The notes under the pieces are model-generated. The model was not told the origin of the DNA and ran no database searches. It saw nothing but the letters and a program-made list of their open reading frames with translations. Source: Vicinamibacterales bacterium (GTDB taxonomy: Bacteria > Acidobacteriota > Vicinamibacteria > Vicinamibacterales > 2-12-FULL-66-21). From it: 64,000 bases of DNA. The DNA is taken from positions 2,779 through 66,778 of the forward strand of contig DATAEE010000027.1 of assembly GCA_036258175.1 (NCBI GenBank). Direction: 5' to 3'. Positions 5,310 through 47,341 of the stretch are shown here, piece by piece. The translations under genes were made by a program, and so were the position numbers. Each line of letters opens with the position of its first letter. Position 1 is the first letter of the stretch.

Positions 5310-5353
5310 AGATGCCGTGTCCACGTGAGCCATCCCGCGAGAGAGAGGATGCG

Positions 5354-8390: not shown

Positions 8391-8400
8391 CGGCGACCCG

Positions 8401-9174: not shown

Positions 9175-9179
9175 ATGCC

Positions 9180-10322: not shown

Positions 10323-11245
10323 CTCGCAAGACAGCGTCGGCTATCGCGTACGCGTTGACCGCCGCTCTTTCATGCGCAGCGTGCTCCTGGTCGACGCCGC
10401 AGCAGCGCACGTTTCGCGCGCCGGAAGATGCCGTGCGGGCGTTGACCGAGACGACGAAGGCAGGCAACGTCGACGAGCTCGTCGCCATCTTCGGCGCCGA
10501 CGGCAAGGAGCTCGTCGCGTCGTCCGATCCGGCAACCGCGCGCAAGAACCGCGAAGTATTCACGGCGGCGATGGCCGAGCGGTGGCGGCTCGAAGACCAG
10601 GGGTCCGGTGGCAAGGTGCTCGTCATCGGCAACGAGGACTGGCCGTTCCCGGTCCCGCTCGTGAAGGATGGCAACAACTGGCGCTTCGACACTGCGGCCG
10701 GAAAAGAAGAAGTGCTGACGCGCCGGATCGGCCGCAACGAGCTCGCCGTTATCCAGGTCTGCCGGACATACGGCAACGCTCAACGGATCTATGCGCACTC
10801 CGGACACGACGGCAAGCCCGCCGGCCTCTATGCGAAAACGTTCGCCAGCGACCAGGGTAAACAGAACGGCCTGTACTGGCCCGCGTCGCATGGCCAGAAG
10901 CGCAGTCCACTCGGCGACCTCGTCGCGCAGGCAGCCGCAGAAGGCCGATCGGTTGGCGGCGGGGCCGCCCAGCCCTCGCCGTTTTACGGCTACTACTTCA
11001 AGATCCTGACGGCACAAGGACCGGCGTCGCCCGGCGGCGCAAAGGATTACATCTCCAACGGTGAGTTGTCAGGCGGGTTCGCGCTGGTCGCGTGGCCCGC
11101 TCAGTACGATGTCACAGGAATCATGACGTTCATCGTCAATCACGATGGCGTCCTTCACGAGCAGGCTCTGGGACCAGACACCGACAAAGTGGCCAGGACG
11201 ATGACCGCTTACAATCCTGACGCGTCCTGGAGCCCTGTTCAGTAA
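10319..11245 (+). CDS. DUF2950 family protein
   Basis: WPFPVPLVKDGNNWRFD, GYYFKILTAQG, GGFALVAWPAQYDVTGIMTFIVNHDGV: DUF2950 hallmarks. Classical partner of DUF3300. 4-nt overlap with the upstream gene. Confidence 0.8.
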   Translation: MTRKTASAIAYALTAALSCAACSWSTPQQRTFRAPEDAVRALTETTKAGNVDELVAIFGADGKELVASSDPATARKNREVFTAAMAERWRLEDQGSGGKVLVIGNEDWPFPVPLVKDGNNWRFDTAAGKEEVLTRRIGRNELAVIQVCRTYGNAQRIYAHSGHDGKPAGLYAKTFASDQGKQNGLYWPASHGQKRSPLGDLVAQAAAEGRSVGGGAAQPSPFYGYYFKILTAQGPASPGGAKDYISNGELSGGFALVAWPAQYDVTGIMTFIVNHDGVLHEQALGPDTDKVARTMTAYNPDASWSPVQ

Positions 11246-11273
11246 CAGCAGAGCTACAACACGGCGGTGACCG

Positions 11274-14063
11274 ATGGCGAGTACCGACCAGCAGTCTGGC
11301 GCGGAGTCCCAGCGCCTTGCCGACGCGCGTGACGGCCGCGCGCTCTGGCGAAAATGGGGGCCCTACCTCAGCGAGCGGCAATGGGGAACCGTTCGCGAGG
11401 ATTACAGCGAGTCGGGCGACGCGTGGAATCACTTCAGCCACGATCAGGCCCGTGCACGCGCCTATCGGTGGGGGGAGGACGGCCTCGCCGGGATATCGGA
11501 CAACAAACAGCTGCTCTGCTTCGCGCTGGCCCTCTGGAATGGCAAAGATCCCATCATCAAAGAACGTCTCTTCGGTCTGACGAACAGCGAGGGGAATCAC
11601 GGCGAGGACGTGAAGGAGTACTACTTCTATCTCGACTCGACGCCCACGCACTCGTACATGAAGTATCTGTACAAGTACCCTCAGTTGGCGTACCCGTACG
11701 ACCAGATCGTCCTGAAAAACCGCCAGCGGGATCGACACGCGCTCGAGTACGAGCTTCTCGACACCGGCGTGTTCGATCAGGACCGGTACTTCGACGTGTT
11801 CGTCGAGTACGCCAAGGCCGCACCTGAAGACATTTTGATCCAGATCACGGTCGCAAACCGCGGGCCCGAGCCGGCCACGCTTCACGTCCTGCCAACCATC
11901 TGGTTTCGCAACACGTGGTCGTGGGGCGGAGACGTTCCCAAGCCATCGCTGAAGCAGATCGATGCCGGCAGCATCGAGGCCTCCCATCCGGATCTGGGAG
12001 GAAGAGTCCTTGATGCGGACGGCGCGCCGGCCTGGCTCTTCACTGAAAACGAAACGAACGTCGAGCGGCTCGTCCACGTCCCCAACCGCACGCCCTATGT
12101 GAAGGATGCGATCAACAGCTACTTCGTGCAGGGCCGGCGGAATGCGGTGAACCCTGAAAAGACCGGGACGAAAGCTGCGGCCCAGTATCAGGTGACGGTC
12201 GGCGCGGGCGCCTCAGAAGTCGTGCGCCTGCGCTTTTCCGATGTGGGCCCGACTGGCGCGCCGAAGAGCGGGCGCGGCGACCGGTTTGGCGCAGCGTTCG
12301 ACGCGATCATGACCACCCGCCGGCGCGAGGCCGACGAGTTCTACGCGTCGGTCATCCCGTCGTCGCTCGGCGCCGATGCCGCCAACGTGATGCGACAGGC
12401 GCTGGCGGGGATGCTCTGGTCGAAGCAGTACTACAACTACGACGTCGACCGCTGGCTCTCCGAGAGGGGCTCGGATCCGTTCAAGGCCCGGCGGCGCGCG
12501 GCGCCCCGCAACGATCGCTGGCATCACATGCAGAACGCGGACGTGATCTCGATGCCGGACAAGTGGGAGTACCCGTGGTACGCGGCGTGGGACCTGGCCT
12601 TTCACATCCTCGCGCTCACGCTCGTCGACGAAGACTTCGGCAAGCAGCAGCTTGACCTCATGCTGCAGGAACGTTATCTCCATCCCAGCGGACAGATTCC
12701 CGCATACGAGTGGAACTTCGGCGACGTCAATCCGCCCGTGCACGCCTGGGCGACGATCTTCACCTACCGCCTGGAGCAGGGCCGGCACGGCCGGGGCGAT
12801 CTCGAATGGCTCGAGCGGTCGTTCCACAAGCTGTTGCTGAACTTCACCTGGTGGGTGAATCGGAAAGACCGCTCCGGCAACAACGTCTTCGACGGCGGCT
12901 TCCTTGGTCTCGACAACATCGGCGTCTTCGACCGGAGCGCGCCGCTGCCCACCGGCGGCAACCTGGAACAGGCGGACGGCACCGCGTGGATGGCGCTCTT
13001 CTGCCAGAACATGCTCGAGATCTCAGCGCAACTGGCGCTCGAAAAGCCCGCCTATGGCGACATGTGTCTCAAGTTCGTCGAACACTACCTCTGGATCGCC
13101 TCGTCGATGATCCACGCCGGCGACGATGTCGGGATGTGGGACGAGGAGGATGGGTTCTTCTACGACGTGCTGAGGCTGCCGGATGGTCGGGCGCAACGTC
13201 TGAAGGTGCGCTCGATGGTGGGGCTGCTCCCCTTCTGTGCCGTGACGGTGTTCGACGGAGAGCTCCTGAAAAAGTACCCGGAGCTCGCTCCCCGTTTCCG
13301 CCGGTTCCTCGACGCGCGCCCGGAGCTGACGGCGTTGATCCAGGATCCCGGAACGCGCGGAGAGCGGGACCGCCGGCTCGCCGCGATTCTGAACGAAGCG
13401 AACCTGCGTCGCGTGCTGGCGAGGATGCTCGACGAGAACGAGTTCCTCAGCCCATACGGCATCCGTTCGATCTCCCGCTATCACGAAAAACATCCGTACG
13501 TCTTCCGCCTCGGGGACCAGGAGTACCGGGTTTCCTACCTGCCGGCGGAATCGGACACCGGGATGTTCGGCGGTAACTCCAATTGGCGCGGTCCGATCTG
13601 GATGCCGGTCAACGGGCTGATTGTCCGCGCGCTGCTTCAGTACTACGCTTACTACGGAGACAGCTTCACCGTGGAGTGTCCAACCGGCTCCGGACGCCGC
13701 ATGACGCTCTACGAGGTCGCGGAGGAGATCTCCCGGCGTCTCGGCAACATCTTCCTGCGAGACAAGGACGGACGCCGGGCGGTCTACGGCGCAACCCGGA
13801 AGTTCCAGGAAGATCCGCACTGGCGCGATCTGATCCTGTTCTACGAGTACTTCCACGGTGACAACGGCGCCGGACTTGGGGCCAGCCACCAGACCGGCTG
13901 GACGGGCATCGTCGCGCGCACGATGCAGTTGTTTGCCACGACGACGGCCGAGCAGGTTGTCGAACTGGGCAAGGCCGCAACTGCAACGGACCATCGAAAG
14001 GATTCCAGGCGGCCGGGCGTGAACGCGCCGGACCGAGTCGAGGCGCCGCCGGTCGCCAGGTGA
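11274..14063 (+). CDS. GH63-like / MGH1-like glycoside hydrolase (glucosidase family), 929 aa
   Basis: N-terminus WRKWGPYLSERQWGTVREDYS...RAYRWGEDGLAG and the (alpha/alpha)6-type C-terminal half (WEYPWYAAWDLAFH, NWRGPIWMPVN) recall the bacterial GH63-like family. Family call made from memory. Confidence 0.65.
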   Translation: MASTDQQSGAESQRLADARDGRALWRKWGPYLSERQWGTVREDYSESGDAWNHFSHDQARARAYRWGEDGLAGISDNKQLLCFALALWNGKDPIIKERLFGLTNSEGNHGEDVKEYYFYLDSTPTHSYMKYLYKYPQLAYPYDQIVLKNRQRDRHALEYELLDTGVFDQDRYFDVFVEYAKAAPEDILIQITVANRGPEPATLHVLPTIWFRNTWSWGGDVPKPSLKQIDAGSIEASHPDLGGRVLDADGAPAWLFTENETNVERLVHVPNRTPYVKDAINSYFVQGRRNAVNPEKTGTKAAAQYQVTVGAGASEVVRLRFSDVGPTGAPKSGRGDRFGAAFDAIMTTRRREADEFYASVIPSSLGADAANVMRQALAGMLWSKQYYNYDVDRWLSERGSDPFKARRRAAPRNDRWHHMQNADVISMPDKWEYPWYAAWDLAFHILALTLVDEDFGKQQLDLMLQERYLHPSGQIPAYEWNFGDVNPPVHAWATIFTYRLEQGRHGRGDLEWLERSFHKLLLNFTWWVNRKDRSGNNVFDGGFLGLDNIGVFDRSAPLPTGGNLEQADGTAWMALFCQNMLEISAQLALEKPAYGDMCLKFVEHYLWIASSMIHAGDDVGMWDEEDGFFYDVLRLPDGRAQRLKVRSMVGLLPFCAVTVFDGELLKKYPELAPRFRRFLDARPELTALIQDPGTRGERDRRLAAILNEANLRRVLARMLDENEFLSPYGIRSISRYHEKHPYVFRLGDQEYRVSYLPAESDTGMFGGNSNWRGPIWMPVNGLIVRALLQYYAYYGDSFTVECPTGSGRRMTLYEVAEEISRRLGNIFLRDKDGRRAVYGATRKFQEDPHWRDLILFYEYFHGDNGAGLGASHQTGWTGIVARTMQLFATTTAEQVVELGKAATATDHRKDSRRPGVNAPDRVEAPPVAR

Positions 14064-15685
14064 GTCGCGTGAGGGTTCTCGGCGCCTGCGTCTTCGCGCT
14101 CGTCCTCAGCGCTCCCCTTGCGCCTGGACAAACGCTGCCCGGTGCGGCGTCGTCACCGCCGGCTGCTCCTGCACAAGCTCCGAGCGATCCTCTCAATCGA
14201 GACACGCCGCGAGGAACCGTTCAAGGATTCCTGAGCGCCGCGCGGCAGGGTCAGAGCGATCTCGCGAGCCAATATCTGAATACGTCCCTGACAGGCCAGG
14301 CCGCGGCCGACCTCGCCCAGCAGCTGTTCGTCGTGCTCGACGCGCGCCTGCAAACCAGCATTAGACGACTGAGCGATGCGCCCGAGGGTTCCCGCGCCAA
14401 TCCGCTGCGGCCCAATCAGGAGGTCGTCGGCGTGATCGAGAGCGGCGGCGGAAACGAGGAAATCGTGGTCGTCCGGATCGAGCGTGGCTCGAGCGGCCCG
14501 ATCTGGCTGTTCTCCGAGCGGACGCTGAGTCTGGTTCCCACGCTGTATGAGGAGATCACCCTTCGATGGACTGAGCGTATTCTGCCGCGGTTTCTCACGG
14601 CTAGACGAATCGGAGGCGTACGGCTCTTCGAGTGGCTCACCGTTCTCCTGGGCCTGCCGCTCTTCTACGTCGTGACGGCACTCCTGAACCGGGTCCTAAC
14701 GCCGCTGATTCGCGGATCGTGGCGCCGGATTTTCCGCCAGTCCGACCTGTTCGCCGGCAACGTCCTTCCCGCGCCGGTTCGCCTCCTGCTCCTGGCGTTC
14801 GCGATTCGCTGGGTCCTGGCTACGCTGCCGCTGTCGCTTCTCGTGCGCCAGGTCTGGTCCAACGCCGCGAGCCTGATCAACGTCGCCGCCGTCGTGTGGC
14901 TGCTGGTACTCCTGAACGGCGAAATCGAGCAGTTCATTCGCCGCCGCTTCCCCCGGGCGAACGTCTCGGCCGGCGCGTCCCTGCTTCGCCTGTTGCGCAG
15001 GGTGTTCGACCTGCTCGTGATCTTCGTGGGCATGATGGCTGTGCTTCGCCGGTTCGGTGTGGACCCGACGCCGGCCCTCGCCGGGCTGGGGGTCGGAGGC
15101 ATCGCGGTCGCCCTCGCGGCGCAGAAAACGCTGGAAAATCTCGTCGCGGGCGCGTCGCTGCTCTTCGACCAGGCGGTGCGCGTCGGGGACTTCATGAAGA
15201 TGGGGGACATCGCCGGCACCATCGACCACATCGGCCTGCGATCGACCCGCATCCGCACGCTCGATCGAACGATCGTGATCGTCCCCAACAGCCAGATCGC
15301 CAACGCCAGCCTCGAAACGATCTCCGCGCGCGACAAATTCTGGTTCCACCCTGTCGTGGGCCTCCGGTACGAAACGACCCCCGAGCAGCTTCGCGCCGTC
15401 GTCGATGGCATCCGCGGGCTGCTCGAGAAACATCGGTCCATCGATCGTGAATCGGTACGCGTGCGGTTCTTCCGGCTTGGAGCGTTCTCTCTGGACGTCG
15501 ATGTCTTCGCGTATCTCTACGCCCGCGACTGGAACCACTTCCTCGAGATTCAGGAGCAGCTTCTTTTCGGCGTGACCGAGATCGTCAGCCGAGCGGGGAC
15601 AGAGATCGCGTTCCCGTCGCAGACGATGTACGTCGCCAACGCGCCGGCCGCCGCGCCAACCGCCGACTCTGTTCCTGGTCGGTAG
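14060..15685 (+). CDS. Mechanosensitive ion channel (MscS family) with N-terminal signal and periplasmic region
   Basis: VRVGDFMKMGDIAGTIDHIGLRSTRIRTLDRTIVIVPNSQIAN is the MscS beta-domain signature. The GTG start overlaps the upstream stop. Confidence 0.85.
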   Translation: MSRVRVLGACVFALVLSAPLAPGQTLPGAASSPPAAPAQAPSDPLNRDTPRGTVQGFLSAARQGQSDLASQYLNTSLTGQAAADLAQQLFVVLDARLQTSIRRLSDAPEGSRANPLRPNQEVVGVIESGGGNEEIVVVRIERGSSGPIWLFSERTLSLVPTLYEEITLRWTERILPRFLTARRIGGVRLFEWLTVLLGLPLFYVVTALLNRVLTPLIRGSWRRIFRQSDLFAGNVLPAPVRLLLLAFAIRWVLATLPLSLLVRQVWSNAASLINVAAVVWLLVLLNGEIEQFIRRRFPRANVSAGASLLRLLRRVFDLLVIFVGMMAVLRRFGVDPTPALAGLGVGGIAVALAAQKTLENLVAGASLLFDQAVRVGDFMKMGDIAGTIDHIGLRSTRIRTLDRTIVIVPNSQIANASLETISARDKFWFHPVVGLRYETTPEQLRAVVDGIRGLLEKHRSIDRESVRVRFFRLGAFSLDVDVFAYLYARDWNHFLEIQEQLLFGVTEIVSRAGTEIAFPSQTMYVANAPAAAPTADSVPGR

Positions 15686-19070: not shown

Positions 19071-19106
19071 CTCCGACATTGCGGGCGTTCTCCGGTATAC
19101 CGGAGA
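19071..19106. promoter_or_regulatory. Dyad cluster S2: perfect 18-bp palindrome plus a weak phased partner
   Basis: TCTCCGGTATACCGGAGA (19089-19106). Weak partner CTCCGACATTGCGGGC (19071-19086) 19 bp away. Lies between the DUF3302 operon and EBP2. Confidence 0.55.
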
Positions 19107-19140: not shown

Positions 19141-21057
19141 TTGCCTTCGGCTAGACTGGGCTCAGTGCGAATCGCGCAGGATGAAAGCCTGATTCGTCTC
19201 GCGGCGGAGGCCCTGCCTCACGGTGTCGTCGTCGTGGCGTCCGACGGCACTATCGCCCTCGTCAGTCGGGAGCTCGAACGGCAATTCGGCTATTCCCGCG
19301 AAGAGTTGATCGGACGGCCGCTCGAGATACTCCTGTCGGAGGCTTGGCGGACCGCTCACGGGGAGCCCCGCGAAGGCCTCGGGCGCCGCCGCGACGGCTC
19401 CGAGTTCCCCGTCGAGATCCGGCTGAGCCCATTACAGGTCGAGGGCGGCACGCTGCTACTGGCCTCGGTAGTCGACATTTCGTCGCGCAAACAGCGCGAC
19501 GCGGCCAACCGCGCGGCGCTCGAAGAGCAGTTCGAGTTCGAACGGCTGGTCGCCTATCTAACTGTCCAGTTCATCGATCTACCGGTTGATCGCGTCAATG
19601 ACACGATTCGCACGGCGCTCGGCCTGATCGCCGAGGCGCTCGATCTGGACCGGTGCACGTTCTACGAGATCGCCGCGGACGGCACGCTGACCGTTCCCGT
19701 GAGCTGGGAGCGAGAGGGGATCCCCGCTGTACCCTCCCCGATGCTGGCAAAGGAACGCTTGCCGTGGGCATTCGAGCAGGTGTTTTCGGGCATTCCCGTC
19801 ACGTTTTCTCATGTCGACGAGATCCCGAGTGGCGAAGACCGCGCGAGCTACGCCGTTCTGGGCGTCAAATCCACGGTGACGGTGCCACTCTCAGTCGAGG
19901 GTCAAGTCGTTGGCGGCGTGGCGTTCAACATGATGCGCAGCGAGCGCAGATGGTCCCCCGAAACGGTTCATCGCCTCTGCGTGATCGGCGCCGCGTTCGG
20001 CAACGTGCTGACACGCCGCCGCAGCGACGAGGCGTTGGCCTCGGCACTCGCGGAGGTGAAGCACCTGAGCGCCCGGCTGCAGGCGGAAAACGTCTACCTG
20101 CGGCGTGAAGTCAATGACCGGCTCGGCGCCAACATCGTCGTCGGACAAAGTGAAGCTATCGGTCGAGTACTGGATCAGGTCAAGCACGTGGCGGCGACCG
20201 ACTCCACGGTGTTATTGCTCGGCGAAACCGGCACCGGCAAGGAGGTCTTCGCGACGCAGATTCACGAGCTGAGCGCCCGGCACAACCACGTCATGGTCCG
20301 CGTCAACTGCTCTGCGATTCCTGCGACGCTTATCGAGAGCGAATTGTTCGGCCGGGAGAAAGGTGCCTTTACCGGCGCCCTCGCGCGGCAAATCGGGCGC
20401 TTCGAGCTGGCGAATCACTCGACCATCTTCCTCGACGAGATCGGCGAGTTGCCGCCGGAGGTTCAGGTCAAGCTGCTCCGCGTGATCGAGGAGCGGCACA
20501 TCGAGCGCCTCGGAAGCCCGAACGCCATCCATGTGGATGTGCGGATCATCGCCGCGACGCACCGGGATCTCGAGCGGGAGATCGCCGAAGCGGCGTTTCG
20601 TGAGGACCTCTTCTACCGGCTGAATGTGTTCCCGGTCCGGGTCCCTCCCCTGCGGGACCGCGTCGAGGACATTCCGCTGCTGGTCTGGCGCTTCGTCGAC
20701 GAGTTCTCGAAGGCGTTCGGAAAGAGAATCGACGTCATCTCGCGCGAAAACATGACGGCTTTGCAGCAATATGCGTGGCCGGGCAACATACGCGAGCTGC
20801 GCAATGCCGTCGAGCGCGCGATGATCGTCGCGACCGGTCCACGCCTGACCATCGCGCCGCCGACCCAGACCGCCGCCACGGCAAGGCGCAGTACGCGGCT
20901 CGCCGATGTCGAAAAAGAGCATATCCGCAGCGTGCTGGACGGCACGGGGTGGCGCATTCGGGGCCCGGGCGGAGCGGCGGATCGCCTTGGCCTCAGGCCG
21001 ACGACGCTCGAAACGCGTCTGGCCAAGCTGGGACTGAGACGTCCCAAGCAGTTATAG
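19141..21057 (+). CDS. Sigma-54-dependent transcriptional activator, PAS-GAF-AAA+-HTH (EBP2)
   Basis: Paralog of 5923 and 24558: [44 protein letters not shown]. Start uncertain (TTG 19141 or GTG 19165). Confidence 0.9.
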
Positions 21058-24470: not shown

Positions 24471-24523
24471 ATCCGGTAATTCACATGACGGTCCGGAATG
24501 CCGGAGCTGAAAAATTTCCGGAG
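24471..24523. promoter_or_regulatory. Dyad cluster S3 between the TonB receptor and EBP3
   Basis: Full site GTCCGGAATGCCGGAG (24491-24506), flanked by half sites TCCGGTAAT (24472) and TTCCGGAG (24516-24523) at about 17-20 bp phasing. Confidence 0.5.
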
Positions 24524-24557: not shown

Positions 24558-26537
24558 GTGAAGCCAAACCAGACAATCACTATGGCCGAACGAGCGAGGC
24601 CCCTCTCCGAGACCGGGCCCAGGTGGCCCGTCACGGACGATCAGGGTCTGTTTCGTCTCGCAGCGGAGTCGCTGCCGAGCGGCATCGTTGTCGTCGCGCC
24701 GGACGGAACCATCGTGCTCGTCAGTCACCAGCTCGAATTGCAGTTCGGATATTTCCGCGAAGAACTGATCGGGCAATCTGTCGACATTCTCGTGCCCGAA
24801 GAATCTCGCGCAGGGACCGGTGAGCCGCAGTCAGCACGCGGCCGCAACCTGCACGGGCGGCGCAAAGATGGGAGCGTCTTCCCGGCTGAGATCGGGCGGA
24901 CCCGGCTCGAAACCGACGAGGGCGTTTTCGTTCTCTGGTCTGTCGTCGACCTCAGTGCCCGGCTCGACGTCGAAAATGCTTCCAGGCAGGGGATCGAACG
25001 GGAGCTCGAGTTCGAGCGGCTCATCGCGGAGCTGTCCTACAAGTTCATCAACCTGCCGCCCGATGAAGTCGTCGAGGCCATTCGCGACGCGCTGCGACGC
25101 ATCGGCGAGGCACTCGAGATCGAACGGTGCTCGTTCTTTCGGGTTCAGCCGGACGGCGAGCTGCTCGCACCGATCAGCTGGGCGCGGGCCGGCATCGCGC
25201 AGCCACCCGTCGTGACGGCGGCCAGGGAGCACTTTCCCTGGGCCGTCGACAATATCCAGAGCGGCCGCATGTTCTGCTTTTCCACGACCGCGGAAGTGCC
25301 GAGCGACGTGGACCGCGCGGGGTACGAGGGATACGGCATTCGCTCATCCGTGACGGTCCCGATCCGCGTGGCCGGCCGCGTCGTGGGCGCGCTCGGGTTC
25401 AACATGGTTGAGCGGGAACGCGTATGGTCGCCGGAGACCCTTCATCGCCTCACGGTGTTGGCCACCATCTTCGGAAACGTCCTCGCGCGCCTGGAAGGGG
25501 ACACAGAGTTGCGTCAAGCGATCTCCGACGTCGAATGTCTTCGCGAGCGCCTGGATGCGGAAAACAGGTACCTCCGCCGCGAGGTTCAGGAGCGGCTTGG
25601 GACCGGGGCCATCATCGGTCAGAGCGCGGCGGTCCGCCGTGTGCTCGAACAGATCCGCCAGGTGGCGAGCACCGACTCGACCGTGCTGCTGCTCGGCGAG
25701 ACCGGCACGGGAAAGGAGCTTTTTGCGACGCAGATCCACGAGCTCAGCGGACGGCGCGATCGGGCGATGGTGCGCGTGAATTGCGCGGCGATTCCCGCGA
25801 CGCTCATGGAAAGTGAATTGTTCGGTCGCGAGAAGGGGGCGTACACCGGCGCGCTCGCCCGGCAGATCGGCCGCTTCGAGCTCGCCAACCATTCGACGAT
25901 CTTCCTCGACGAGATCGGCGACCTTCCGCCGGACGTCCAGGTCAAACTGCTGCGCGTGCTGGAGGAGCGGCAGATCGAGCGCCTTGGCAGCCCCAGGAGC
26001 ATCAACGTGGACGTGCGGATCATCGCGGCCACGCATCGGGATCTCGACAAGCGAATCCTCGATGAAGCGTTCCGGGAGGACCTCTACTATCGGCTCAACG
26101 TCTTCCCGATCCGCGTGCCGCCGCTTCGTGAGCGCGTTGAGGACATCCCGCTGCTCGTCTGGCGATTCGTCGAGGAGTTCTCCAAGTCGTTTGGCAAGCG
26201 GATCGACGCGATCCCGAACGAGAACATGGCGGCGCTGCAGCGGTACGCGTGGCCAGGGAATATCCGCGAGCTTCGCAACGTCGTCGAACGCGCGATGATC
26301 GTCGCGATCGGCACCCGGCTGACGATTCCACTTACAGCGTCGGAGACGCGTCCGGCAACAAAACCGCGCACCACCACGCTGGCGGATCTCGAGAAGGCGC
26401 ACATCCGCCTCGTGCTGGAAAACACCGGCTGGCGCATCCGGGGTGCGGGCGGCGCCGCCGAGCAGCTGGGTCTCAAGCCGACGACGCTCGAAACGCGAAT
26501 GGCGAAGCTGGGCCTGGCGCGCCTCCGGCCAAACTAA
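24558..26537 (+). CDS. Sigma-54-dependent transcriptional activator, PAS-GAF-AAA+-HTH (EBP3), GAYTGA variant
   Basis: GETGTGKE; loop reads GAYTGA (25836-25853); GWRIRGAGGAAEQLGLKPTTLETRMAKLGL. Possible start at ATG 24582. Confidence 0.9.
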   Translation: MKPNQTITMAERARPLSETGPRWPVTDDQGLFRLAAESLPSGIVVVAPDGTIVLVSHQLELQFGYFREELIGQSVDILVPEESRAGTGEPQSARGRNLHGRRKDGSVFPAEIGRTRLETDEGVFVLWSVVDLSARLDVENASRQGIERELEFERLIAELSYKFINLPPDEVVEAIRDALRRIGEALEIERCSFFRVQPDGELLAPISWARAGIAQPPVVTAAREHFPWAVDNIQSGRMFCFSTTAEVPSDVDRAGYEGYGIRSSVTVPIRVAGRVVGALGFNMVERERVWSPETLHRLTVLATIFGNVLARLEGDTELRQAISDVECLRERLDAENRYLRREVQERLGTGAIIGQSAAVRRVLEQIRQVASTDSTVLLLGETGTGKELFATQIHELSGRRDRAMVRVNCAAIPATLMESELFGREKGAYTGALARQIGRFELANHSTIFLDEIGDLPPDVQVKLLRVLEERQIERLGSPRSINVDVRIIAATHRDLDKRILDEAFREDLYYRLNVFPIRVPPLRERVEDIPLLVWRFVEEFSKSFGKRIDAIPNENMAALQRYAWPGNIRELRNVVERAMIVAIGTRLTIPLTASETRPATKPRTTTLADLEKAHIRLVLENTGWRIRGAGGAAEQLGLKPTTLETRMAKLGLARLRPN

Positions 26538-26554
26538 ACGAACGCTGCTTGGGA

Positions 26555-26584
26555 GGTAGGGGCGGTTCGCGAACCGCCCCTACC
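26555..26584. terminator. Perfect 30-nt palindrome between convergent genes
   Basis: GGTAGGGGCGGTTCG/CGAACCGCCCCTACC, between the stops at 26537 and 26591. Confidence 0.6.
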
Positions 26585-26590
26585 CGACTC

Positions 26591-27394
26591 CTACGGCCGC
26601 ACCTTGATCGCTGACGTGAGCTGAAACTGCAGCCGCGTTTCGGCCGGGATCTTCAAGTGCTCTTCGCCGCTGGCGGCAACGGCTGCCCCGCCGGCGGCGC
26701 CGACGGCCGCGCCGATGGCGGCACCCGAGCCACCTCCCGCGATGCCACCCACGATGGCGCCGAGACCGGCGCCTCCACCGACCTTGCGCGCGGTCTTTTT
26801 ACCTTCCCCTTTGCCCTTGGTCTCGACGTAGGCGGTGGCGACCTGATAGACCGTTCCGCCAAACGCGACGGAGTTCATCTTCAGCGAAATCTTGTCGCTG
26901 CCCTTCATCGTCCCCGACTGCTCGACGGCGGCGGCCTGCAGGACGGCAGACGCGCCGCGCGGGATCACGGTCGCGCCGCCGATGATCACCGGATCGTCAA
27001 CGATCGCCTTGAACGACTGGCCGGCCTGGGACGCGTCCACATCGATGCCCTGGGTCAGCCGGACGTTCAGCGTCGTGCCGGCCGGCACGGTCACCGGGGG
27101 CTTCTGCGGTGGCGCGGCCGGCTTCGGCGCAGGCGCCGGCTTCTCCGCGGCCGCGGGCTTCGCCGCCGGTTGTGCCGGCTTCCGCGCCGAGAACTCGAGG
27201 GCGACGGCGTCCTCGAGCCGAACCTCGGACACTTGTCCGTCGTCGAGGAGGACGCGGACGGCCTTGCTGTCGCCGCCGATGAACATTCCTTCGATGACCT
27301 TGCCGGATCGCAGCCGGACGCGGTCGGCCGACAGCGACGCGCCGGTCGCCAGCACGAGCATCGCGGCAATCCACCACGCACTTCGCCTATTCAT
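26591..27394 (-). CDS. Secreted protein with Pro/Ala linker and C-terminal glycine-zipper
   Basis: Start at MNRRSAWWIAAMLVLATGASLSA. Contains AKPAAAEKPAPAPKPAAPPQKPP and GGGAGLGAIVGGIAGGGSGAAIGAAVGAAGGAAV. Confidence 0.65.
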   Translation of the reverse strand: MNRRSAWWIAAMLVLATGASLSADRVRLRSGKVIEGMFIGGDSKAVRVLLDDGQVSEVRLEDAVALEFSARKPAQPAAKPAAAEKPAPAPKPAAPPQKPPVTVPAGTTLNVRLTQGIDVDASQAGQSFKAIVDDPVIIGGATVIPRGASAVLQAAAVEQSGTMKGSDKISLKMNSVAFGGTVYQVATAYVETKGKGEGKKTARKVGGGAGLGAIVGGIAGGGSGAAIGAAVGAAGGAAVAASGEEHLKIPAETRLQFQLTSAIKVRP

Positions 27395-27914
27395 CGTTGT
27401 CTCTCTCTTTCGTGACCGGGGCGACGGGGAGCGAGGCCGCAATCTTCAGATCGATGATGAGCTGGAGCTGGTGTTCCACCTGCAGAAAGCGCAGCGCCGT
27501 TCGCGGCGAAAGCGCCGTTTTGACGCGCTCGAAACACTTCGCCCTGACCGCCTGCCGCTTGGCCTCGAGATCGAGCGCCTTGCTCGCGAGCTTGTCGGCC
27601 ATCTCATCAGTCAGCTTGTCGTAGTTGCGCGCGTACTCCTCTATCAGCGCGACCCGCTCGTCACCGAGTTTCGACATTTCGAGATCGTACTCGCGATAGA
27701 TTGGCCAGAAGGCCTTGTCTTCCTCGTCGGTGAAGCCCATGACCTCCGTGAGGATCGCGACCTTCTGCGCCTGCACGTCGCTGCGAAGCAGTTCGGCGTA
27801 CGCGCTGAGATTGAGCGATTCGCTGTCCTGCGGCTTCGGCTGTGCAGTCTGCGCATCCGTGGCCAGGCCACTCATCGCGAGCAGGCAGAGCGCGACGATC
27901 GATACTCGAGTCAC
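27387..27914 (-). CDS. Secreted all-helical hypothetical protein
   Basis: GTG start after an AAGGAGG RBS. Signal MTRVSIVALCLLAMSGLATDAQ. 8-nt overlap with the downstream gene. Confidence 0.65.
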   Translation of the reverse strand: MTRVSIVALCLLAMSGLATDAQTAQPKPQDSESLNLSAYAELLRSDVQAQKVAILTEVMGFTDEEDKAFWPIYREYDLEMSKLGDERVALIEEYARNYDKLTDEMADKLASKALDLEAKRQAVRAKCFERVKTALSPRTALRFLQVEHQLQLIIDLKIAASLPVAPVTKERDNDE

Positions 27915-27950
27915 GTTGGTGACCTCCTTGAAGCGAGCCTTACGATCGAC

Positions 27951-28499
27951 CTACGTCTGCTGCTTCGGCGGGTAGTTCTTGAAGATCTTCTTCATCGCAT
28001 CATTGATGCTCTTGTCGCGCTTCTCGGGACTGGCCTGCGTCTTGACCTCCTTCGTGGCCATCCCGCGCCACGCCAGCTTCGACTGCTTCGCGTCGGCGAT
28101 GTCGATGACAAGCGTCCCGATCAGGATGTCCCGCACCTGCGTCGTTGACGTACCCATGCCACCGCCCCACCCCCAGCCATACGGGCCGTAGCCGCCGCCG
28201 TAGCCGCTGCTGTATGTCGAGATGTCCTTCTGCTTGTCGAACGCGATGTGATAGACGACGAACACGTCGGGGTCCGATTCGGCCTTCGTGAGTCCCTTCG
28301 CGGCGAGCTGCGCGTCGATGGCCGCCACGATGCGGTCGTCGACCAGCGGCTGCCCGACCTTTGTGCCTTCCTTGTGCGCGTACGTCTTGAAGCCGGCGAA
28401 GTTCGCGGACTTGTCGTAGTCGTAGCTGACCTTCTGCGCGAAGACGAGCGTCGGTGAGAGGAGAGCGGCAATAGCCAGGGTCACGAGTTTCCTCTGCAT
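27951..28499 (-). CDS. DUF4136 domain lipoprotein-like protein
   Basis: Start at MQRKLVTLAIAALLSPTLVFAQ. Contains VDDRIVAAIDAQLAAKGL..PDVFVVYH...TLVIDIADAKQSKLAWRG...INDAMKKIFKNYP. Paralog at 62281. Confidence 0.7.
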   Translation of the reverse strand: MQRKLVTLAIAALLSPTLVFAQKVSYDYDKSANFAGFKTYAHKEGTKVGQPLVDDRIVAAIDAQLAAKGLTKAESDPDVFVVYHIAFDKQKDISTYSSGYGGGYGPYGWGWGGGMGTSTTQVRDILIGTLVIDIADAKQSKLAWRGMATKEVKTQASPEKRDKSINDAMKKIFKNYPPKQQT

Positions 28500-28548
28500 G
28501 CGTCTTTCCTTTCGTTCGAATGTTGCTTCGACAGGCGCCGGTGGGGGC

Positions 28549-28564
28549 TGCAATTGTCAAGCCG
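28549..28564 (-). promoter_or_regulatory. Candidate sigma-54 promoter for the DUF4136 operon (or a sigma-70 -35 box)
   Basis: Minus strand reads CGGCTTGACAATTGCA: perfect TTGCA -12, GGC at -24, correct spacing. About 50 nt upstream of ATG 28499. Also contains TTGACA. Confidence 0.35.
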
Positions 28565-28627
28565 CGCGGGGCCACCCGTTACGATGGTTCGGAATAGCGG
28601 TTCGCGCAATGGGACCTAGGGTGTAGG

Positions 28628-28683
28628 CCCCGGCATTTCGGAGGAACTCCGTTCGGGCGGAGGAATACCGTTGAAATCCGGAG
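28628..28683. promoter_or_regulatory. Dyad cluster S4: three phased sites between divergent operons
   Basis: CCCCGGCATTTCGGAG (28628), CTCCGTTCGGGCGGAG (28647), CCGTTGAAATCCGGAG (28668). Spacing 19 and 21 bp. Confidence 0.5.
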
Positions 28684-28702
28684 CAAACGGCCGCGGCGCC
28701 CC

Positions 28703-28718
28703 CGGCACGGTGACTGCT
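28703..28718 (+). promoter_or_regulatory. Candidate sigma-54 promoter for the 28782-32554 genes
   Basis: CGGCACGGTGACTGCT: GGCACG-N4-CTGCT with correct spacing. 64 nt upstream of ATG 28782 and 69 bp from the centre of dyad 28628-28643. Confidence 0.5.
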
Positions 28719-28781
28719 CTTGCAGCAGGGCGGAGGTATAGTGTCCCTTACGCCCAAGTGCCGCCGGAAAGGAATTAGACG

Positions 28782-31184
28782 ATGACCCAGGGGAAACCGG
28801 GACGGCCAGTCGTGGCCATGCTCGCCGCACTCAGTTTGCTCGTCCAATCGCCAGCGCCGCTCGTCGCCGATCAGACGGCCGCAAAGCCGGCTTCGCAAGC
28901 ACCGCCGACTTCCGCCCAGCCAGCGACCCCGGCCGCAGCACAGCCGTCCGCGAAAACCGCCGCCGCCGCGCCGGCGCCCGTCGACGGTGGTTGGCCGCGT
29001 GTCTATAACGTTCCGAGCGGCGGCAGCCTGTTGATGTATCAGCCGCAGATCGCCAGTTGGGACAAGCAAGCCCACGTTGTGGCGTTCAGCGCCGTGTCCT
29101 ATCGCACGAAGACGGCGGAGAAGCCGCTCGTCGGCACGATCAAACTCGAAGCGGATACGAAGACCGCGATTGAGGAGCGGCTCGTCAGACTCCAGAACAT
29201 GAAGATCGCGGAAGCGAACTTTCAAAACCTGCCGAAGGAACAGGTACGCGAGATCGTCGCCGAAATCGACAAGGCGGTTCCCGACGACGACCGCGTGATC
29301 GCGCTGGATCGAGTCCTCGCAAACGTGGACAAGAGCGCGATCATTCCGAAGAACGTCGAAGGCATCAAGGCCGATCCGCCGACGATCTTTTTCAGCAAGA
29401 CGCCTGCAGTGATCGTGAATCTCGACGGCGAGCCCGTCTGGAGCCCGATCAAAGAAAACGATCTGAAATTCGCCGTGAATACGAACTGGGATCTGTTTCA
29501 ACACGGCCCGACCGCCACGTTGTATCTTCGGAACGACGACTCATGGTTGAAGGCCCGGGACCTGAAGGGGCCCTGGTCCCCTGCCGGAACGCTCCCCGAC
29601 AGCTTCAAGAAGCTGCCGGCTGAAGAAAACTGGAAGGAAGTCAAAGCGAGTCTGCCCGGCAGATCGATCAGCGCGTCGGCCGTACCAAAGGTCTTCGTCA
29701 GTAATCAGCCGGCCGAGCTCATTCTGCTCAGCGGCGAACCGAACTACCTCCTCGTGCAGGGCACCGATCTCCTGTGGGTGAGCAACACGGACAGCGACGT
29801 GTTCCGCATGGGGAAGGCCGGAAAGGTCTATTACCTCGTGGCCGGCCGCTGGTTTTCGGCGCCGGACTTCACGGGACCATGGACGTTCGCGACGCCGTCG
29901 CTTCCGGCCGACTTCAAGAAGATTCCGCTCGAGCACGACCGGTCGCGCGTGCTGGCATCGGTGCCGGGCACCGATCAAGCCGCGGAAGCCGTCCTGATCG
30001 CCCAGGTGCCGCAGACCGCGCGCGTCAACAAGAAAGAACTGAAGGCTCCCGAGGTCGCGTTCCAGGGCGACCCGCAGTTCACACCGATCGAAAAGACCAC
30101 CGTGCAGCGGGCAGTGAACACCGACAAGGACGTCTTCAAGGTCGGCGATCTGTACTACATGTGCTACCAGGGCGTGTGGTTCGAGAGCAAGGCCTCCTCC
30201 GGTCCATGGTCAGTGGCGGAGTCGGTACCTGAAGCGATCTACCAGATCCCAGTCAGCTCACCGGCACATCACGTGACGTATGTCACCGTCGAAGACGACG
30301 ATGACGACGACTGGGTCGTGTATGCGGCCGCGGCCGGCTATACAGGCATGATGGTCGCGTGGGGCTGCACGGTCTGGGGTTCGGGTTATTACTATCCGCC
30401 CTACATCGGCTGGGGCGGCTACTATCCTTATTACTACCCGCATTTCCCGACTTACGGTTACTCCGCCTGGTACAACCCCTGGACCGGTGCATACGGACGC
30501 AGCGCAAGAGTCTACGGTCCGTACGGCGGCGCGGGAGTAGGAGCGCGGTACAACCCGCGCACCGGAACGTACTCCCGGGGCGCGGCGGCATGGGGACCGT
30601 ACGGCGCGCGCGGCGTCGCCCAGGCATATAACCCCCGCACGGGCGCGTACGCACAAACGCGTCAGGGTTCGAACGTGTACGGCAGCTGGGGCTCGACCTC
30701 CGTGCAGCGCGGCGACGACTGGGCGAAGACCAATCGCTACACGAACAACAGAACCGGCAACACCACGCGGACCGTTCGAACGGACGACGGTGGAGCCGTC
30801 ACCCGGCGCGGCTCCGACGGCGGCTTCGTCGGCGCCGGCAGCGAGGGCAACATCTACGCGGGAAAGGACGGGAACGCATACCGGCGACAGGACGGAACCT
30901 GGCAGAAATACGATAACGGCGGATGGCAGAACACAGACAAGCAGCCCAGCGGTGAGCGGCCGCAGCCAACCACCGGCCAGGAACGAACAGGCGCTTCGAA
31001 CCGCAGCAGCAGCATCGATCAGAGCACGCGGGATCAACTCGATCGCGACGCCGCCGCGCGCCGCGAGGGGGCGACCCGTACGCAGAACTACGGCAACTAT
31101 CGGAGCGGTTCCGGCTCGCCCAGCACCTATCGCGGCGGCGGCTCTCGCGGCGGCGGACGCGGCGGCGGAGGACGGCGACGGTAG
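28782..31184 (+). CDS. Large secreted repeat protein (800 aa) with poly-Asp / Tyr-Gly-rich / RGG tail
   Basis: Signal plus Pro/Ala-rich linker. Three W..x..GPW..A...P.....IP repeats. VEDDDDDD, YYYPPYIGWGGYYPYYYP, three YNP(R/W)TG repeats, ends GGGSRGGGRGGGGRRR. Confidence 0.75.
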   Translation: MTQGKPGRPVVAMLAALSLLVQSPAPLVADQTAAKPASQAPPTSAQPATPAAAQPSAKTAAAAPAPVDGGWPRVYNVPSGGSLLMYQPQIASWDKQAHVVAFSAVSYRTKTAEKPLVGTIKLEADTKTAIEERLVRLQNMKIAEANFQNLPKEQVREIVAEIDKAVPDDDRVIALDRVLANVDKSAIIPKNVEGIKADPPTIFFSKTPAVIVNLDGEPVWSPIKENDLKFAVNTNWDLFQHGPTATLYLRNDDSWLKARDLKGPWSPAGTLPDSFKKLPAEENWKEVKASLPGRSISASAVPKVFVSNQPAELILLSGEPNYLLVQGTDLLWVSNTDSDVFRMGKAGKVYYLVAGRWFSAPDFTGPWTFATPSLPADFKKIPLEHDRSRVLASVPGTDQAAEAVLIAQVPQTARVNKKELKAPEVAFQGDPQFTPIEKTTVQRAVNTDKDVFKVGDLYYMCYQGVWFESKASSGPWSVAESVPEAIYQIPVSSPAHHVTYVTVEDDDDDDWVVYAAAAGYTGMMVAWGCTVWGSGYYYPPYIGWGGYYPYYYPHFPTYGYSAWYNPWTGAYGRSARVYGPYGGAGVGARYNPRTGTYSRGAAAWGPYGARGVAQAYNPRTGAYAQTRQGSNVYGSWGSTSVQRGDDWAKTNRYTNNRTGNTTRTVRTDDGGAVTRRGSDGGFVGAGSEGNIYAGKDGNAYRRQDGTWQKYDNGGWQNTDKQPSGERPQPTTGQERTGASNRSSSIDQSTRDQLDRDAAARREGATRTQNYGNYRSGSGSPSTYRGGGSRGGGRGGGGRRR

Positions 31185-31253
31185 CCCGGTGCAGATTGCT
31201 AAATGTGGAACTCCCTGAGTGGACTGAAAGAGATTGCGGTAAAGTAGCGCGCC

Positions 31254-31880
31254 ATGCGCAAGTACGTCAGCGAGTTCATCGGGACGTTTTTCCTGCTTTT
31301 GACGATCGGGTGCACCGGCATCGCGGCAGGACCGGGTGTGATCGCCCCGCTCGCCATCGGTTCGGTATTGATGGTCATGATCTACGCGGGCGGCCACGTG
31401 TCGGGGGCGCACTACAACCCGGCGGTCACCCTCGGCGTCTTCCTGCGGGGGCGATGCCCGGCCGGAGATGTCGCGCCGTACATGGGCGCCCAGATCGCGG
31501 GCGCCATCGCCGCCGCGGCGGTCGTGATGTTCCTCAAGGGGAACGAGCCCGTCGCGCCGTTCGACGCTCCCGTCGCGCCCGCCCTGGTGGCGGAATTCCT
31601 GTTCACGTTTGCGCTCGTCTACGTGATCCTGAACGTCGCGACGGCGAAGGCGACCTCCGGCAACTCGTACTTTGGCCTCGCGATCGGCTTCACGGTCCTC
31701 GCCGGAGCATTCGCCGTAGGAAACGTGTCCGGCGGAGCCTTCAACCCTGCGGTCGCGATCGGAGCCTCGATCCTGCGCCTTCTGCCCTGGTCGAACATCT
31801 GGATCTATCTCGTCGCCGACCTGCTCGGAGGGGCGGCGGCAGCGTTCGTGTTCACGTCGGTGAACCCGAACGACCGATAG
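31254..31880 (+). CDS. MIP-family channel (aquaporin-like)
   Basis: Two NPA boxes (HYNPAVTLG, AFNPAVAIG), six TM segments, 208 aa. Confidence 0.9.
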   Translation: MRKYVSEFIGTFFLLLTIGCTGIAAGPGVIAPLAIGSVLMVMIYAGGHVSGAHYNPAVTLGVFLRGRCPAGDVAPYMGAQIAGAIAAAAVVMFLKGNEPVAPFDAPVAPALVAEFLFTFALVYVILNVATAKATSGNSYFGLAIGFTVLAGAFAVGNVSGGAFNPAVAIGASILRLLPWSNIWIYLVADLLGGAAAAFVFTSVNPNDR

Positions 31881-31915
31881 CCGGATTGTGTAGACCGTCC
31901 ACCCGAAGATAATGT

Positions 31916-32554
31916 GTGTCCATGACTCGACTTGCCTTGTCCGCTCTTCTCGCGTTCGGCCTGACGGCTTCGGAGGCCTCCGCCCAGTGGATCAAGAACA
32001 TGGCAAAGCGTTCCGGAGCAGGCGGATCGGTCGGAGGGATTTTCACGACTGACGACGACGTCAACGTCGGCCCCGCCTTTGGATTCAACTTCGGCCTCGC
32101 GCCCAAGCCAGGGCTCGGACCGACGCTGGGCTTCGGATGGTACCAAGGCGACCTGACGCTGTCCGACGTCTCCGGCGACACGGAGATCGGGCGCCTCCGG
32201 GTTCGTCCCATCATGGCGGGCATCGGGTACACGTGGGTGACGGGCCGAGTGGCCACCGGCGTGTCGCTGAACGCCGGCGTCAGCATCAACTCGATCCGGC
32301 TGAATGATCAGTACCGCAACTTCTTCGGACCCGGCACCGAGGTCACAGTCGACGCGAGCAACAGCTTCTGTGTCCGGCCTCAGATAAAGGTCGAATACGC
32401 GGTAGGGCGGAAAGTCGGCATCTTCTCGAGCGCCGGCTTCTTCTTCACCGAGTTCGACAACGTTATCGATACACCGGTCGGCCGCTTCGAGAACACGTGG
32501 GACGCGAGCAGCTTCAACGTGTTCGTGGGCGTGATGGTCTACCCGTTCAAGTGA
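31916..32554 (+). CDS. Small outer-membrane beta-barrel protein
   Basis: Signal LALSALLAFGLTASEASAQ, alternating-hydrophobic strands, C-terminal VGVMVYPFK. Confidence 0.65.
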   Translation: MSMTRLALSALLAFGLTASEASAQWIKNMAKRSGAGGSVGGIFTTDDDVNVGPAFGFNFGLAPKPGLGPTLGFGWYQGDLTLSDVSGDTEIGRLRVRPIMAGIGYTWVTGRVATGVSLNAGVSINSIRLNDQYRNFFGPGTEVTVDASNSFCVRPQIKVEYAVGRKVGIFSSAGFFFTEFDNVIDTPVGRFENTWDASSFNVFVGVMVYPFK

Positions 32555-33134
32555 GTCCGGCGCGCCGCAGCGCGTCGGCGTAGCTCTCCGGGGTGTTGCA
32601 CGTCCTGAAGCTTTCAAGATCGGGATCGACCTCCCGCAGCTCATCGGGCTGGACGCGCCGCACACGAACGTGGTCGAGCAGGTCTCGCGCGCGCAGCGCA
32701 CGCTTCGCGACGAGCGCCTCGATGACGGGCGCAATCGAGCGCGCATAGACCGCGGTCGTCATCATCGGATAGGCGTCGATCACCGGCACCGCGGCGTCGT
32801 ACCCCGCGCTCAGATCCAGGAGCCGCCCGATCAGCGCCGGACGGAGGAACGGCAGGTCGCACGCCGTCAGAAACGCCCTGTCGGCCCTCACATGACGCAG
32901 GCCGACCATCAGGCCGGCGAGCGGTCCGAGGCCTTCCGCCGGATCGCGCACGGCTTCGAAGCCCGCAGGAAGCGTTTGTCCCTCCCGCGCTACCAGCACC
33001 ACGTCGTCAGCCGCCTCGCGAACGATTCGCACGACCCGACCGAGAAGCGTTTCACTGCCGAACAGAAGCGACGCTTTGTCGCGTCCCATTCGCGTCGAGC
33101 GTCCGCCGCAGAGCACGATGGCCGAGTGAGTCAC
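32547..33134 (-). CDS. mobA: Molybdenum cofactor guanylyltransferase
   Basis: AIVLCGGRSTRMGRDKA...GPLAGL...ACDLPFL motifs. Confidence 0.85.
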   Translation of the reverse strand: MTHSAIVLCGGRSTRMGRDKASLLFGSETLLGRVVRIVREAADDVVLVAREGQTLPAGFEAVRDPAEGLGPLAGLMVGLRHVRADRAFLTACDLPFLRPALIGRLLDLSAGYDAAVPVIDAYPMMTTAVYARSIAPVIEALVAKRALRARDLLDHVRVRRVQPDELREVDPDLESFRTCNTPESYADALRRAGLT

Positions 33135-47001: not shown

Positions 47002-47005
47002 CGCC

Positions 47006-47341
47006 TCAGGCCGTATCCAGAACTTTGTGGATGGCGAGGATGAGCCGATCGAACTCCTTTCGTTCGACCGCGAGCTGCTTGCGGCCGGCGGCGGTGACCG
47101 TGTAGTAGCGCGCGCGTCGATTGTTTTCCGACGCGCCCCACTCAGCCTTGACCCAGCCTTTCAGGAGCAGCCGCTGCAGCGCAGGATAGAGGGAGCTCTC
47201 ACCTACCTGCAGCACGTCTTCGGACACGACCTGGATGTGCTGCGCGATGCCGTATCCGTGCTTCGAGCCGGGTCCGAGCGCCTTGAGGATCAGCAACTCG
47301 AGCGTGCCGGGCAACAGATCGGCCGCCTCGGTCCTTCCCAT
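47006..47341 (-). CDS. PadR family transcriptional regulator
   Basis: LELLILKALGPGSKHGYGIAQHI...GESSLYPALQRLLLKGWV...RRARYYTVTAAGRKQL. Confidence 0.9.
   Translation of the reverse strand: MGRTEAADLLPGTLELLILKALGPGSKHGYGIAQHIQVVSEDVLQVGESSLYPALQRLLLKGWVKAEWGASENNRRARYYTVTAAGRKQLAVERKEFDRLILAIHKVLDTA

Follow-up and report, generated by a model that had tools for sequence, protein, structure and literature searches.

A candidate bidirectional sigma-54 control region with a tandem enhancer between two exported-protein operons of a Vicinamibacterales bacterium

Introduction

The spacer at positions 28500-28781 of a 64-kb stretch of DNA (65% G+C; the whole stretch analysed is referred to here as the window) from a soil Acidobacterium of the order Vicinamibacterales separates two divergent operons for exported proteins. 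We consider it likely that this spacer is a bidirectional sigma-54 control region, in which one tandem enhancer bound by a member of a PAS-GAF activator family drives both promoters. The spacer comprises 282 bp and is bounded by two start codons (ATG), that of a DUF4136 gene on the minus strand (28499) and that of a gene for an 800-aa protein on the plus strand (28782). It contains two outward-facing sigma-54-type promoters in one intergenic region, with putative activator sites between them. This layout had been proposed in a first-pass annotation of the DNA, and it is strongly supported by comparative footprinting, which covered 40 orthologous spacers and eight variant loci.

Architecture of the divergent spacer

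The -24/-12 element on the minus strand (28564-28549) reads CGGCTTGACAATTGCA, with the GG at 28563-28562 and the GC at 28551-28550, and faces the operon for the DUF4136, 175-aa and Gly-zipper proteins. Its counterpart on the plus strand (28703-28718) reads CGGCACGGTGACTGCT, with the GG at 28704-28705 and the GC at 28716-28717, and faces the operon for the 800-aa protein, an aquaporin-type channel and a probable outer-membrane protein (OMP). In both elements, GG and GC are exactly 10 bp apart. The minus element matches the consensus TGGCACG-N4-TTGCW at nine of 12 positions and the plus element at ten, which places the latter among the eight best matches in the window. The predicted transcription start sites (TSSs) lie near 28538 on the minus side and near 28729 on the plus side, which would give 5' untranslated regions of about 39 and 53 nt, respectively.

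Between the promoters lie two imperfect 16-bp dyads, the candidate enhancer (upstream activating sequence) sites A and B, each with two mismatches to CTCCGG-N4-CCGGAG and with their centres 19 bp apart. Site A (CCCCGGCATTTCGGAG, 28628-28643) is centred at 28635.5, which corresponds to about -97 on the minus side and about -93 on the plus side when counted from the predicted TSSs. Site B (CTCCGTTCGGGCGGAG, 28647-28662) is centred at 28654.5, and the corresponding values are about -116 on the minus side and about -74 on the plus side.

Direct reading confirmed both promoter sequences as they had been annotated, including the TTGCA on the minus strand, and the distances of 73 bp and 69 bp given for the first dyad centre to the minus and the plus GG were reproduced when recomputed from 28635.5. 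The annotation had also described three phased dyads at 28628, 28647 and 28668, positions that are the starts of 16-mers. The first two stand and form a tandem pair, whereas the third had to be given up: the 16-mer at 28668-28683 (CCGTTGAAATCCGGAG) contains only the right half, CCGGAG, with mismatches at four of 12 positions, it is not among the palindromes detected in the window with up to three mismatches, and it is conserved in no orthologue. This unconserved half-site was rejected as a part of the enhancer and, judged from the alignment, probably lies outside the conserved enhancer.

Selective conservation in Vicinamibacterales

For comparison, 71 loci encoding the 800-aa protein were retrieved, nearly all of which are labelled Acidobacteriota and many Vicinamibacterales. 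The DUF4136 operon is divergent from the 800-aa gene in 40 of them; eight loci without DUF4136 keep the module, and 23 others make up the rest. A MAFFT alignment of the 40 orthologous spacers, which come from different Vicinamibacterales genomes, revealed three conserved blocks only, namely the minus promoter, the tandem palindromes and the plus promoter. The mean information is 1.36 bits per column within the three blocks and 0.27 outside. The near-random divergence of the remaining spacer argues against simple inheritance. The eight loci that lack DUF4136 retain the whole module ahead of the gene for the 175-aa protein. By contrast, the module is not found beside that operon in any of the 23 other loci, and in most of them both elements are missing from the 1 kb upstream of the 800-aa gene. 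According to this sequence comparison, the spacer elements are real and are conserved in about 48 related genomes.

The two promoter blocks follow the sigma-54 pattern. Each of the 40 orthologous spacers has GG-N8-TTGCA at the corresponding position, 29-123 bp (mostly 45-54 bp) from the DUF4136 ATG, and the intervening bases vary; the information content approaches 2 bits at GGC and TTGCA, and the orthologue consensus of the minus promoter is cGGCTcGaCaaTTGCA. The plus element, GGCAC-N6-CTGCT, is clear in all but two of the 40 spacers, with weaker versions in the remaining two, and its consensus is cGGCACagTCcCTGCT. GG(C) and TGC(A/T) are near-invariant at a fixed spacing in both promoter blocks, and the positions between them are variable. 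The tandem palindrome is present in every one of the 40 spacers, with the consensus ccCGgcATtcCGGAG for site A, CTCCGGtc...CGGAG for site B and CCGgcATtcCGGAGgaaCTCCGGtc...CGGAG overall.

The spacing of the elements is constrained to different degrees. The distance from the site A centre to the minus GG falls into two classes of 59-61 bp and 70-76 bp (73 bp in the window), which are about one helical turn apart, and sites A and B are separated by 19 bp in 35 of 39 loci and by 20 bp in the other four. The distance from the site B centre to the plus GG is 50-53 bp in five loci including the window and 85-120 bp elsewhere, with a mode of 103-109 bp. Orthologues with the long spacing (about 105 bp) contain a semi-conserved (G)TCAAC, followed after about 18 nt by ACTTCgG, between site B and the plus promoter. 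This CAAC...ACTTC element is unlike the IHF consensus of Escherichia coli and is found neither in the window nor in its four relatives with the short spacing; it could be the site of a DNA-bending protein or of a second regulator. A reading of the window spacer revealed nothing that matches the IHF consensus of E. coli.

The case for function rests on the comparison across genomes and not on the single sequence, the statistics of which are unremarkable. In the window, there are 33 GG-N10-GC matches to TGGCACG-N4-TTGCW at nine or more of 12 positions and eight at ten or more, and neither element of the spacer is exceptional among them. Likewise, the palindrome pattern with up to three mismatches was found 82 times, compared to 89 times expected from shuffled sequences. 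Other top sigma-54-like matches (5124-5109, 5294-5309, 8036-8051 and 18996-18981) are intergenic and face genes, and good copies of the palindrome are located near them at 5219 and 5238 (19 bp apart), 7902 and 19090, with another copy at 24491; this combination raises the prior for function. Moreover, 27 tandem palindromes were detected in 1.03 Mb of sequence, and all 27 have an outward sigma-54-like element at a distance of 30-140 bp, although many of them are mutually orthologous and do not represent 27 independent events. Sigma-54-like elements flank 17 of the 27 on both sides, the chance rate being about 3% per side.

A candidate activator and its paralogues

A gene for a sigma-54 activator (bacterial enhancer-binding protein), which was absent from the first-pass annotation, adjoins the minus operon at 24558-26537 on the plus strand and is convergent with the Gly-zipper gene; its true start may be the ATG at 24582. 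The encoded protein consists of PAS, GAF, AAA+ (PF00158, E = 3.1e-70), AAA_lid_14 and HTH_8 domains and has a GAYTGA loop. It has the make-up of the NtrC family, with a sigma-54 interaction AAA+ domain, a C-terminal helix-turn-helix (HTH) of the Fis type and an N-terminal sensor domain. In NCBIfam, it comes closest to FhlA and NifA, with scores that do not reach the respective cut-offs, and matches among the PDB sequences are FleQ, NifA and ZraR. An activator gene occupies this position in about 25 of the 40 orthologous loci; in other genomes, the syntenic activators have retained the HTH, and many loci have two such genes in tandem. Just upstream of the gene, at 24491-24506, lies a palindrome of the same family (GTCCGGAATGCCGGAG) with a single mismatch, which is a possible site of autoregulation.

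The window encodes two paralogous activators (5923-7872 and 19141-21057). All three proteins are 59-63% identical overall and are encoded within 21 kb. In the recognition-helix region GWRIRG.GGAA..LGLKPTTLETRMAKLGL, they do not differ from one another, and the loop reads either GAYTGA or GAFTGA. A palindrome of the one family stands beside each of the three genes, at 5219/5238, 19090 and 24491. The identical helices and the same palindromes raise the question of how target specificity is kept or whether the paralogues cross-regulate.

Proposed mechanism and alternative explanations

In the mechanism that we favour, sigma-54 RNA polymerase would sit as closed complexes on the two outward-facing -24/-12 promoters (28564-28549 on the minus strand and 28703-28718 on the plus strand). 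The palindromes at 28628-28643 and 28647-28662, being 19 bp apart, would lie on roughly one face of the helix, and dimers of a PAS-GAF-AAA+-HTH activator, most likely the product of the adjacent gene 24558-26537, would bind to both of them. A signal perceived via the PAS and GAF domains would cause the activator to assemble as an ATPase ring, which could reach either promoter through DNA looping and convert the closed into the open complex. As a result, both exported-protein operons would be co-induced, the DUF4136/175-aa/Gly-zipper operon to the left and the 800-aa/aquaporin/OMP operon to the right. In this scheme, we infer the binding of the palindromes, the choice among the paralogues, the TSSs, the signal and the sharing of one enhancer by both sides. 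What the sequences show directly are the elements with their selective conservation and spacing classes, the adjacent activator gene and the association of the palindrome with sigma-54-like elements and with this activator family. Three candidate activators with a loop of the GAFTGA type are encoded in the window, and the distance of about 74-116 bp between the palindrome centres and the predicted starts agrees with the 70-150 bp or so at which activator sites are expected upstream. Sigma-54 itself may be assumed for this organism because three sigma-54 activator genes are present.

Several observations weigh against this scheme. An rpoN gene is missing from the window annotation, and an RpoN-box peptide was found neither in the window nor in the 71 loci. 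The T of TGGCAC is missing in both promoters, and the plus promoter has CTGCT and not TTGCW. Both palindromes are weaker here, with their two mismatches each, than in many orthologues, and the orthologues are phylogenetically related and are not independent samples. Site B lies anywhere from 50 to 120 bp from the plus GG, and the phasing is weak, with a circular R of 0.47 at best. In about 15 of the 40 orthologous loci, an activator gene is missing from the 6-kb flank, and the adjacent gene may not encode the activator that is used because three paralogues share the recognition helix. Finally, the public RNA data, two soil metatranscriptomes (about 10% of sampled words) that are available as contigs only, gave no ends at the predicted starts, and none of the contigs extends over the predicted 5' ends.

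The most serious alternative accepts both sigma-54 promoters as genuine but assigns the palindromes to a different protein, be it one of the paralogues (5923-7872 or 19141-21057), a mixed ring of paralogues or an unrelated regulator such as a repressor. The shared recognition-helix region, the occurrence of the palindrome family at no fewer than five places in the window and the roughly 15 loci without an activator gene in the flank are all compatible with such an assignment. On the other side, the activator gene is convergent with the Gly-zipper gene in about 25 of the 40 loci, a palindrome also lies just upstream of this very activator gene, and every tandem palindrome adjoins a sigma-54-like element, which suits an activator more than an unrelated repressor. 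We regard this alternative as unlikely, and the product of the adjacent gene is preferred.

It is also conceivable, though we would give it only a small chance, that the enhancer serves one promoter, that the other promoter is activated from elsewhere or from solution and that the sharing is merely apparent. The support for one shared enhancer consists solely of the lack of any other conserved block and of the constrained spacing. The tight bimodality of the distance between site A and the minus promoter (about 60 and 72 bp), as opposed to the range of 50-120 bp and the weak phasing between site B and the plus promoter, would fit an enhancer dedicated to one of the two sides, and so would the extra CAAC...ACTTC element of the long-distance orthologues, which is missing in the window. 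However, the spacer has no further conserved block that could serve as a second enhancer, the 69/50-bp geometry relative to the plus promoter recurs in the module at 5219/5238, and 17 of the 27 tandem palindromes have promoters on both sides. We regard an enhancer shared by both promoters as the more probable reading.

A very improbable explanation is that the minus-strand element is no -24/-12 element but the -35 box (TTGACA) of a sigma-70 promoter, a case that the first-pass annotation had itself raised against its proposal. Indeed, the window contains a perfect TTGACA at 28560-28555. However, among 41 spacers this hexamer is found in only six, and others read TCGACA (14 spacers), TCCGCA, GCGCAG or CCACCG. 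At the distance of a -10 box (16-18 bp), the window reads GCGCCT; across the 41 spacers, the best match averages 1.9 of six positions, A2 and T6 of the -10 box occur together in a single spacer, and no -10 box is conserved. What is invariant instead are the flanking GG(C) and TTGCA, that is the sigma-54 pattern, with the GG/TTGCA spacing fixed in 41 of 41 spacers. Furthermore, a sigma-70 scan of the region 26400-32800 returned zero promoters. The sigma-70 reading of the minus element was rejected for these reasons, and so was a sigma-70 pair on the plus side, TTGCAG (28720) and TATAGT (28737), whose hexamers are only 11 bp apart in an unconserved region. The weakest explanation, that all elements are functionless chance matches in G+C-rich DNA, for which the 33 sigma-54-like matches and the shuffle-level palindromes could be cited, is exceedingly improbable and is refuted as far as the comparison allows by the footprinting, the information content and the co-occurrence of palindromes and promoters, because the elements are selectively conserved at the same positions in at least 40 genomes in which the surrounding spacer has diverged beyond recognition.

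Comparison with known sigma-54 systems

Canonical sigma-54 promoters of the NtrC-activated glnAp2 type have a GG and a GC that are 10 bp apart and, at about -75 to -120, two adjacent dyads to which activator dimers bind; the activator is an AAA+ protein whose loop is of the GAFTGA type. The spacer and its candidate activator resemble this type in the GG/GC spacing, in the two adjacent dyads and in the loop of the AAA+ activator. They differ in that the arrangement here is bidirectional and in that the -24 part is CGGCAC or CGGCTC and not TGGCAC. Moreover, only about 74 bp separate the nearest site centre in the window from the predicted plus TSS, a distance close to the lower limit of what is usual.

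Closer counterparts of the divergent layout are found in enterobacteria. In E. coli and Salmonella, ZraR (also called HydG) controls the divergent sigma-54 promoters of zraP and zraSR (PMC4987338). As predicted for the spacer described here, there are two divergent sigma-54 promoters, and one side of zraP/zraSR encodes an exported envelope protein. In addition, the AAA+ and DNA-binding domains of ZraR align to residues 352-648 of the activator (PDB 1ojl, E = 5e-77). In contrast, ZraR belongs to the response regulators, has a receiver domain, works with a partner kinase and controls its own expression from one of the two promoters, whereas the activator in the window has PAS and GAF sensors and no receiver, and its convergent gene lies outside the divergent pair. 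ZraP finds no match among the regulated proteins here (no family hit).

The FhlA-dependent sigma-54 operons hycA-I (STM2853-44) and hypA-E (STM2854-58) likewise stand back to back, and the FhlA site is a 16-bp palindrome, CATTTCGTACGAAATG (PMC4987338). Back-to-back operons and a 16-bp palindrome are also seen in the window, and FhlA and the activator share a GAF sensor. However, the palindrome here is CTCCGG-N4-CCGGAG, and the regulated genes encode envelope proteins, whereas those of hyc/hyp are hydrogenase genes. FhlA is the best NCBIfam match to the activator (E = 3.2e-114, residues 321-654), but the score of 383 bits is far below the equivalog cut-off of 830, and the likeness is limited to the C-terminal two thirds; for this reason, the activator was rejected as an FhlA orthologue.

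The first-pass annotation had called the layout uncommon. This view could not be maintained, as a second copy is present in the same window (5085-5311) and the layout is known from zraP/zraSR and hyc/hyp of enterobacteria (PMC4987338). The mechanism itself is not new.

The flanking operons

The minus operon begins with the gene for the DUF4136 protein (27951-28499; PF13590, E = 1.4e-40), which has a signal peptide. It is followed by the gene for a 175-aa exported protein without a family (27387-27914), previously termed the helical protein, and by that for a Gly-zipper (YMGG-like) exported protein (26591-27394), whose match to PF13441 (E = 7.4e-05) is below the Pfam cut-off; both genes keep their position in the orthologous loci. 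The first gene of the plus operon encodes the 800-aa exported protein (28782-31184), which has no family and is rich in Tyr, Gly and Trp in its C-terminal half. It precedes the genes for an aquaporin-type channel of the MIP family (31254-31880; PF00230, E = 1.3e-36) and for the probable outer-membrane beta-barrel protein (31916-32554; PF13505, E = 1.9e-4, below the Pfam cut-off). The domain search thereby agrees with the gene content as annotated earlier, the OMP match being weak. The N-termini of all six proteins are signal-peptide-like, as read off the translations. For the 175-aa and 800-aa proteins, searches of Pfam, NCBIfam and PDB sequences gave zero matches, even at relaxed thresholds. 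Contigs of the soil metatranscriptomes overlap parts of the DUF4136, 800-aa and aquaporin genes, indicating low-level expression in soil.

Most orthologues have a gene for a protein of about 125 aa, STAS-like by eye (MSITMENERGNVYRLEIRGTLSKKDL...), between the plus promoter and the 800-aa gene (for instance in the spacer at 5097-5767 of locus L003). This gene is missing in the window, where the plus promoter directly precedes the 800-aa gene.

Between the converging stop codons of the activator and Gly-zipper genes lies a perfect G+C-rich palindrome of 30 nt (GGTAGGGGCGGTTCG/CGAACCGCCCCTACC, 26555-26584), which is likely a two-way terminator. A simple terminator scan did not list this palindrome because it lacks a T run.

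The 800-aa protein and the DUF3300 protein encoded elsewhere in the window have in common the order of an Asp run (at least six residues), a hydrophobic stretch rich in Gly and Ala and a segment rich in Tyr, Gly and Trp (YYYPPYIGWGGYYPY and YYYGPYGWHGGGYMY). This architecture is located at 30290-30420 (residues ~500-550 of the 800-aa protein) and within 8817-10322 (residues ~305-352 of the DUF3300 protein). A BLASTP comparison of the two proteins was not significant (E = 0.12). It is curious that the shared architecture is found in two putative sigma-54-controlled operons.

Other modules in the window

A second bidirectional module of the same design is located at 5085-5311, with the tandem palindromes at 5219 and 5238 between its promoters. 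On the minus strand, a -24/-12 element at 5124-5109 (TGGCACGCCCCGTGCT), which with 11 of 12 positions is the best match in the window, faces an F-type ATP synthase operon comprising the genes for a, B, delta, alpha, gamma and the start of beta (5084 down to 1). A sigma-54 promoter ahead of ATP synthase genes would be unusual. On the plus strand, the element at 5294-5309 (TGGTACGCCTGCTGCA) faces an open reading frame of 204 aa, which is followed by the activator gene 5923-7872.

Downstream of this activator gene, a -24/-12 element at 8036-8051 (TGGAACGACTGCTGCT) is preceded by palindromes at 7902 (one mismatch) and 7921 (weak). This element faces five consecutive genes (8052-15685) for an ABM-domain protein, the DUF3300 protein, a DUF2950 protein, a GH63-like glycoside hydrolase and an MscS-type channel. 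Furthermore, a minus-strand element at 18996-18981 (TGGCATGGCGAGTGCT) faces an operon for DUF3302, HlyD-like and outer-membrane efflux proteins, and a perfect palindrome (CTCCGGTATACCGGAG, 19090-19105) is situated between this element and the start of the third activator gene (19141-21057).

In two other regions of the minus strand, 44368-47341 and 59111-62213, a gene for a PadR-family regulator is followed by one for a large permease of the MacB/FtsX type (877 and 878 aa). The two units look like paralogous efflux or export modules.

Implications

To our knowledge, almost nothing is known about the control of transcription in Vicinamibacterales, and a literature search on sigma-54 in Acidobacteria found nothing relevant. 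The module described here is well supported and testable, and it comes from an abundant, mostly uncultured order of soil Acidobacteria.

As a lead, the apparent use of a single enhancer motif by several paralogous activators is more unusual than the layout. Within its first 30 kb, the window contains three such activators, at least five enhancer sites and six sigma-54-type promoters, and two of these units are complete bidirectional modules, one of which faces the F-type ATP synthase operon. As a speculative extension, which we put forward with low confidence, PAS-GAF sigma-54 activators may form an expanded family in the Vicinamibacterales whose members have one recognition helix and use one enhancer motif (CTCCGG-N4-CCGGAG, in tandem, 19 bp apart). 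If the enhancer of one paralogue is indeed also recognised by the others, or if mixed rings are formed, signals from different sensors would be integrated at common enhancers. This would amount to a cross-wired sigma-54 network over envelope proteins, efflux and energy conversion, unlike the rule of one activator and one regulon in model bacteria.

Irrespective of this extension, the comparison defines a lineage-specific sigma-54 consensus (cGGCAC-N6-CTGCT and cGGCTc-N6-TTGCA), an enhancer motif and a candidate activator family. The motifs are tied to a conserved set of exported proteins without assigned function, namely the DUF4136, 175-aa, Gly-zipper and Tyr/Gly-rich 800-aa proteins. From these motifs, the sigma-54 regulon could become predictable across the genomes of the Vicinamibacterales.

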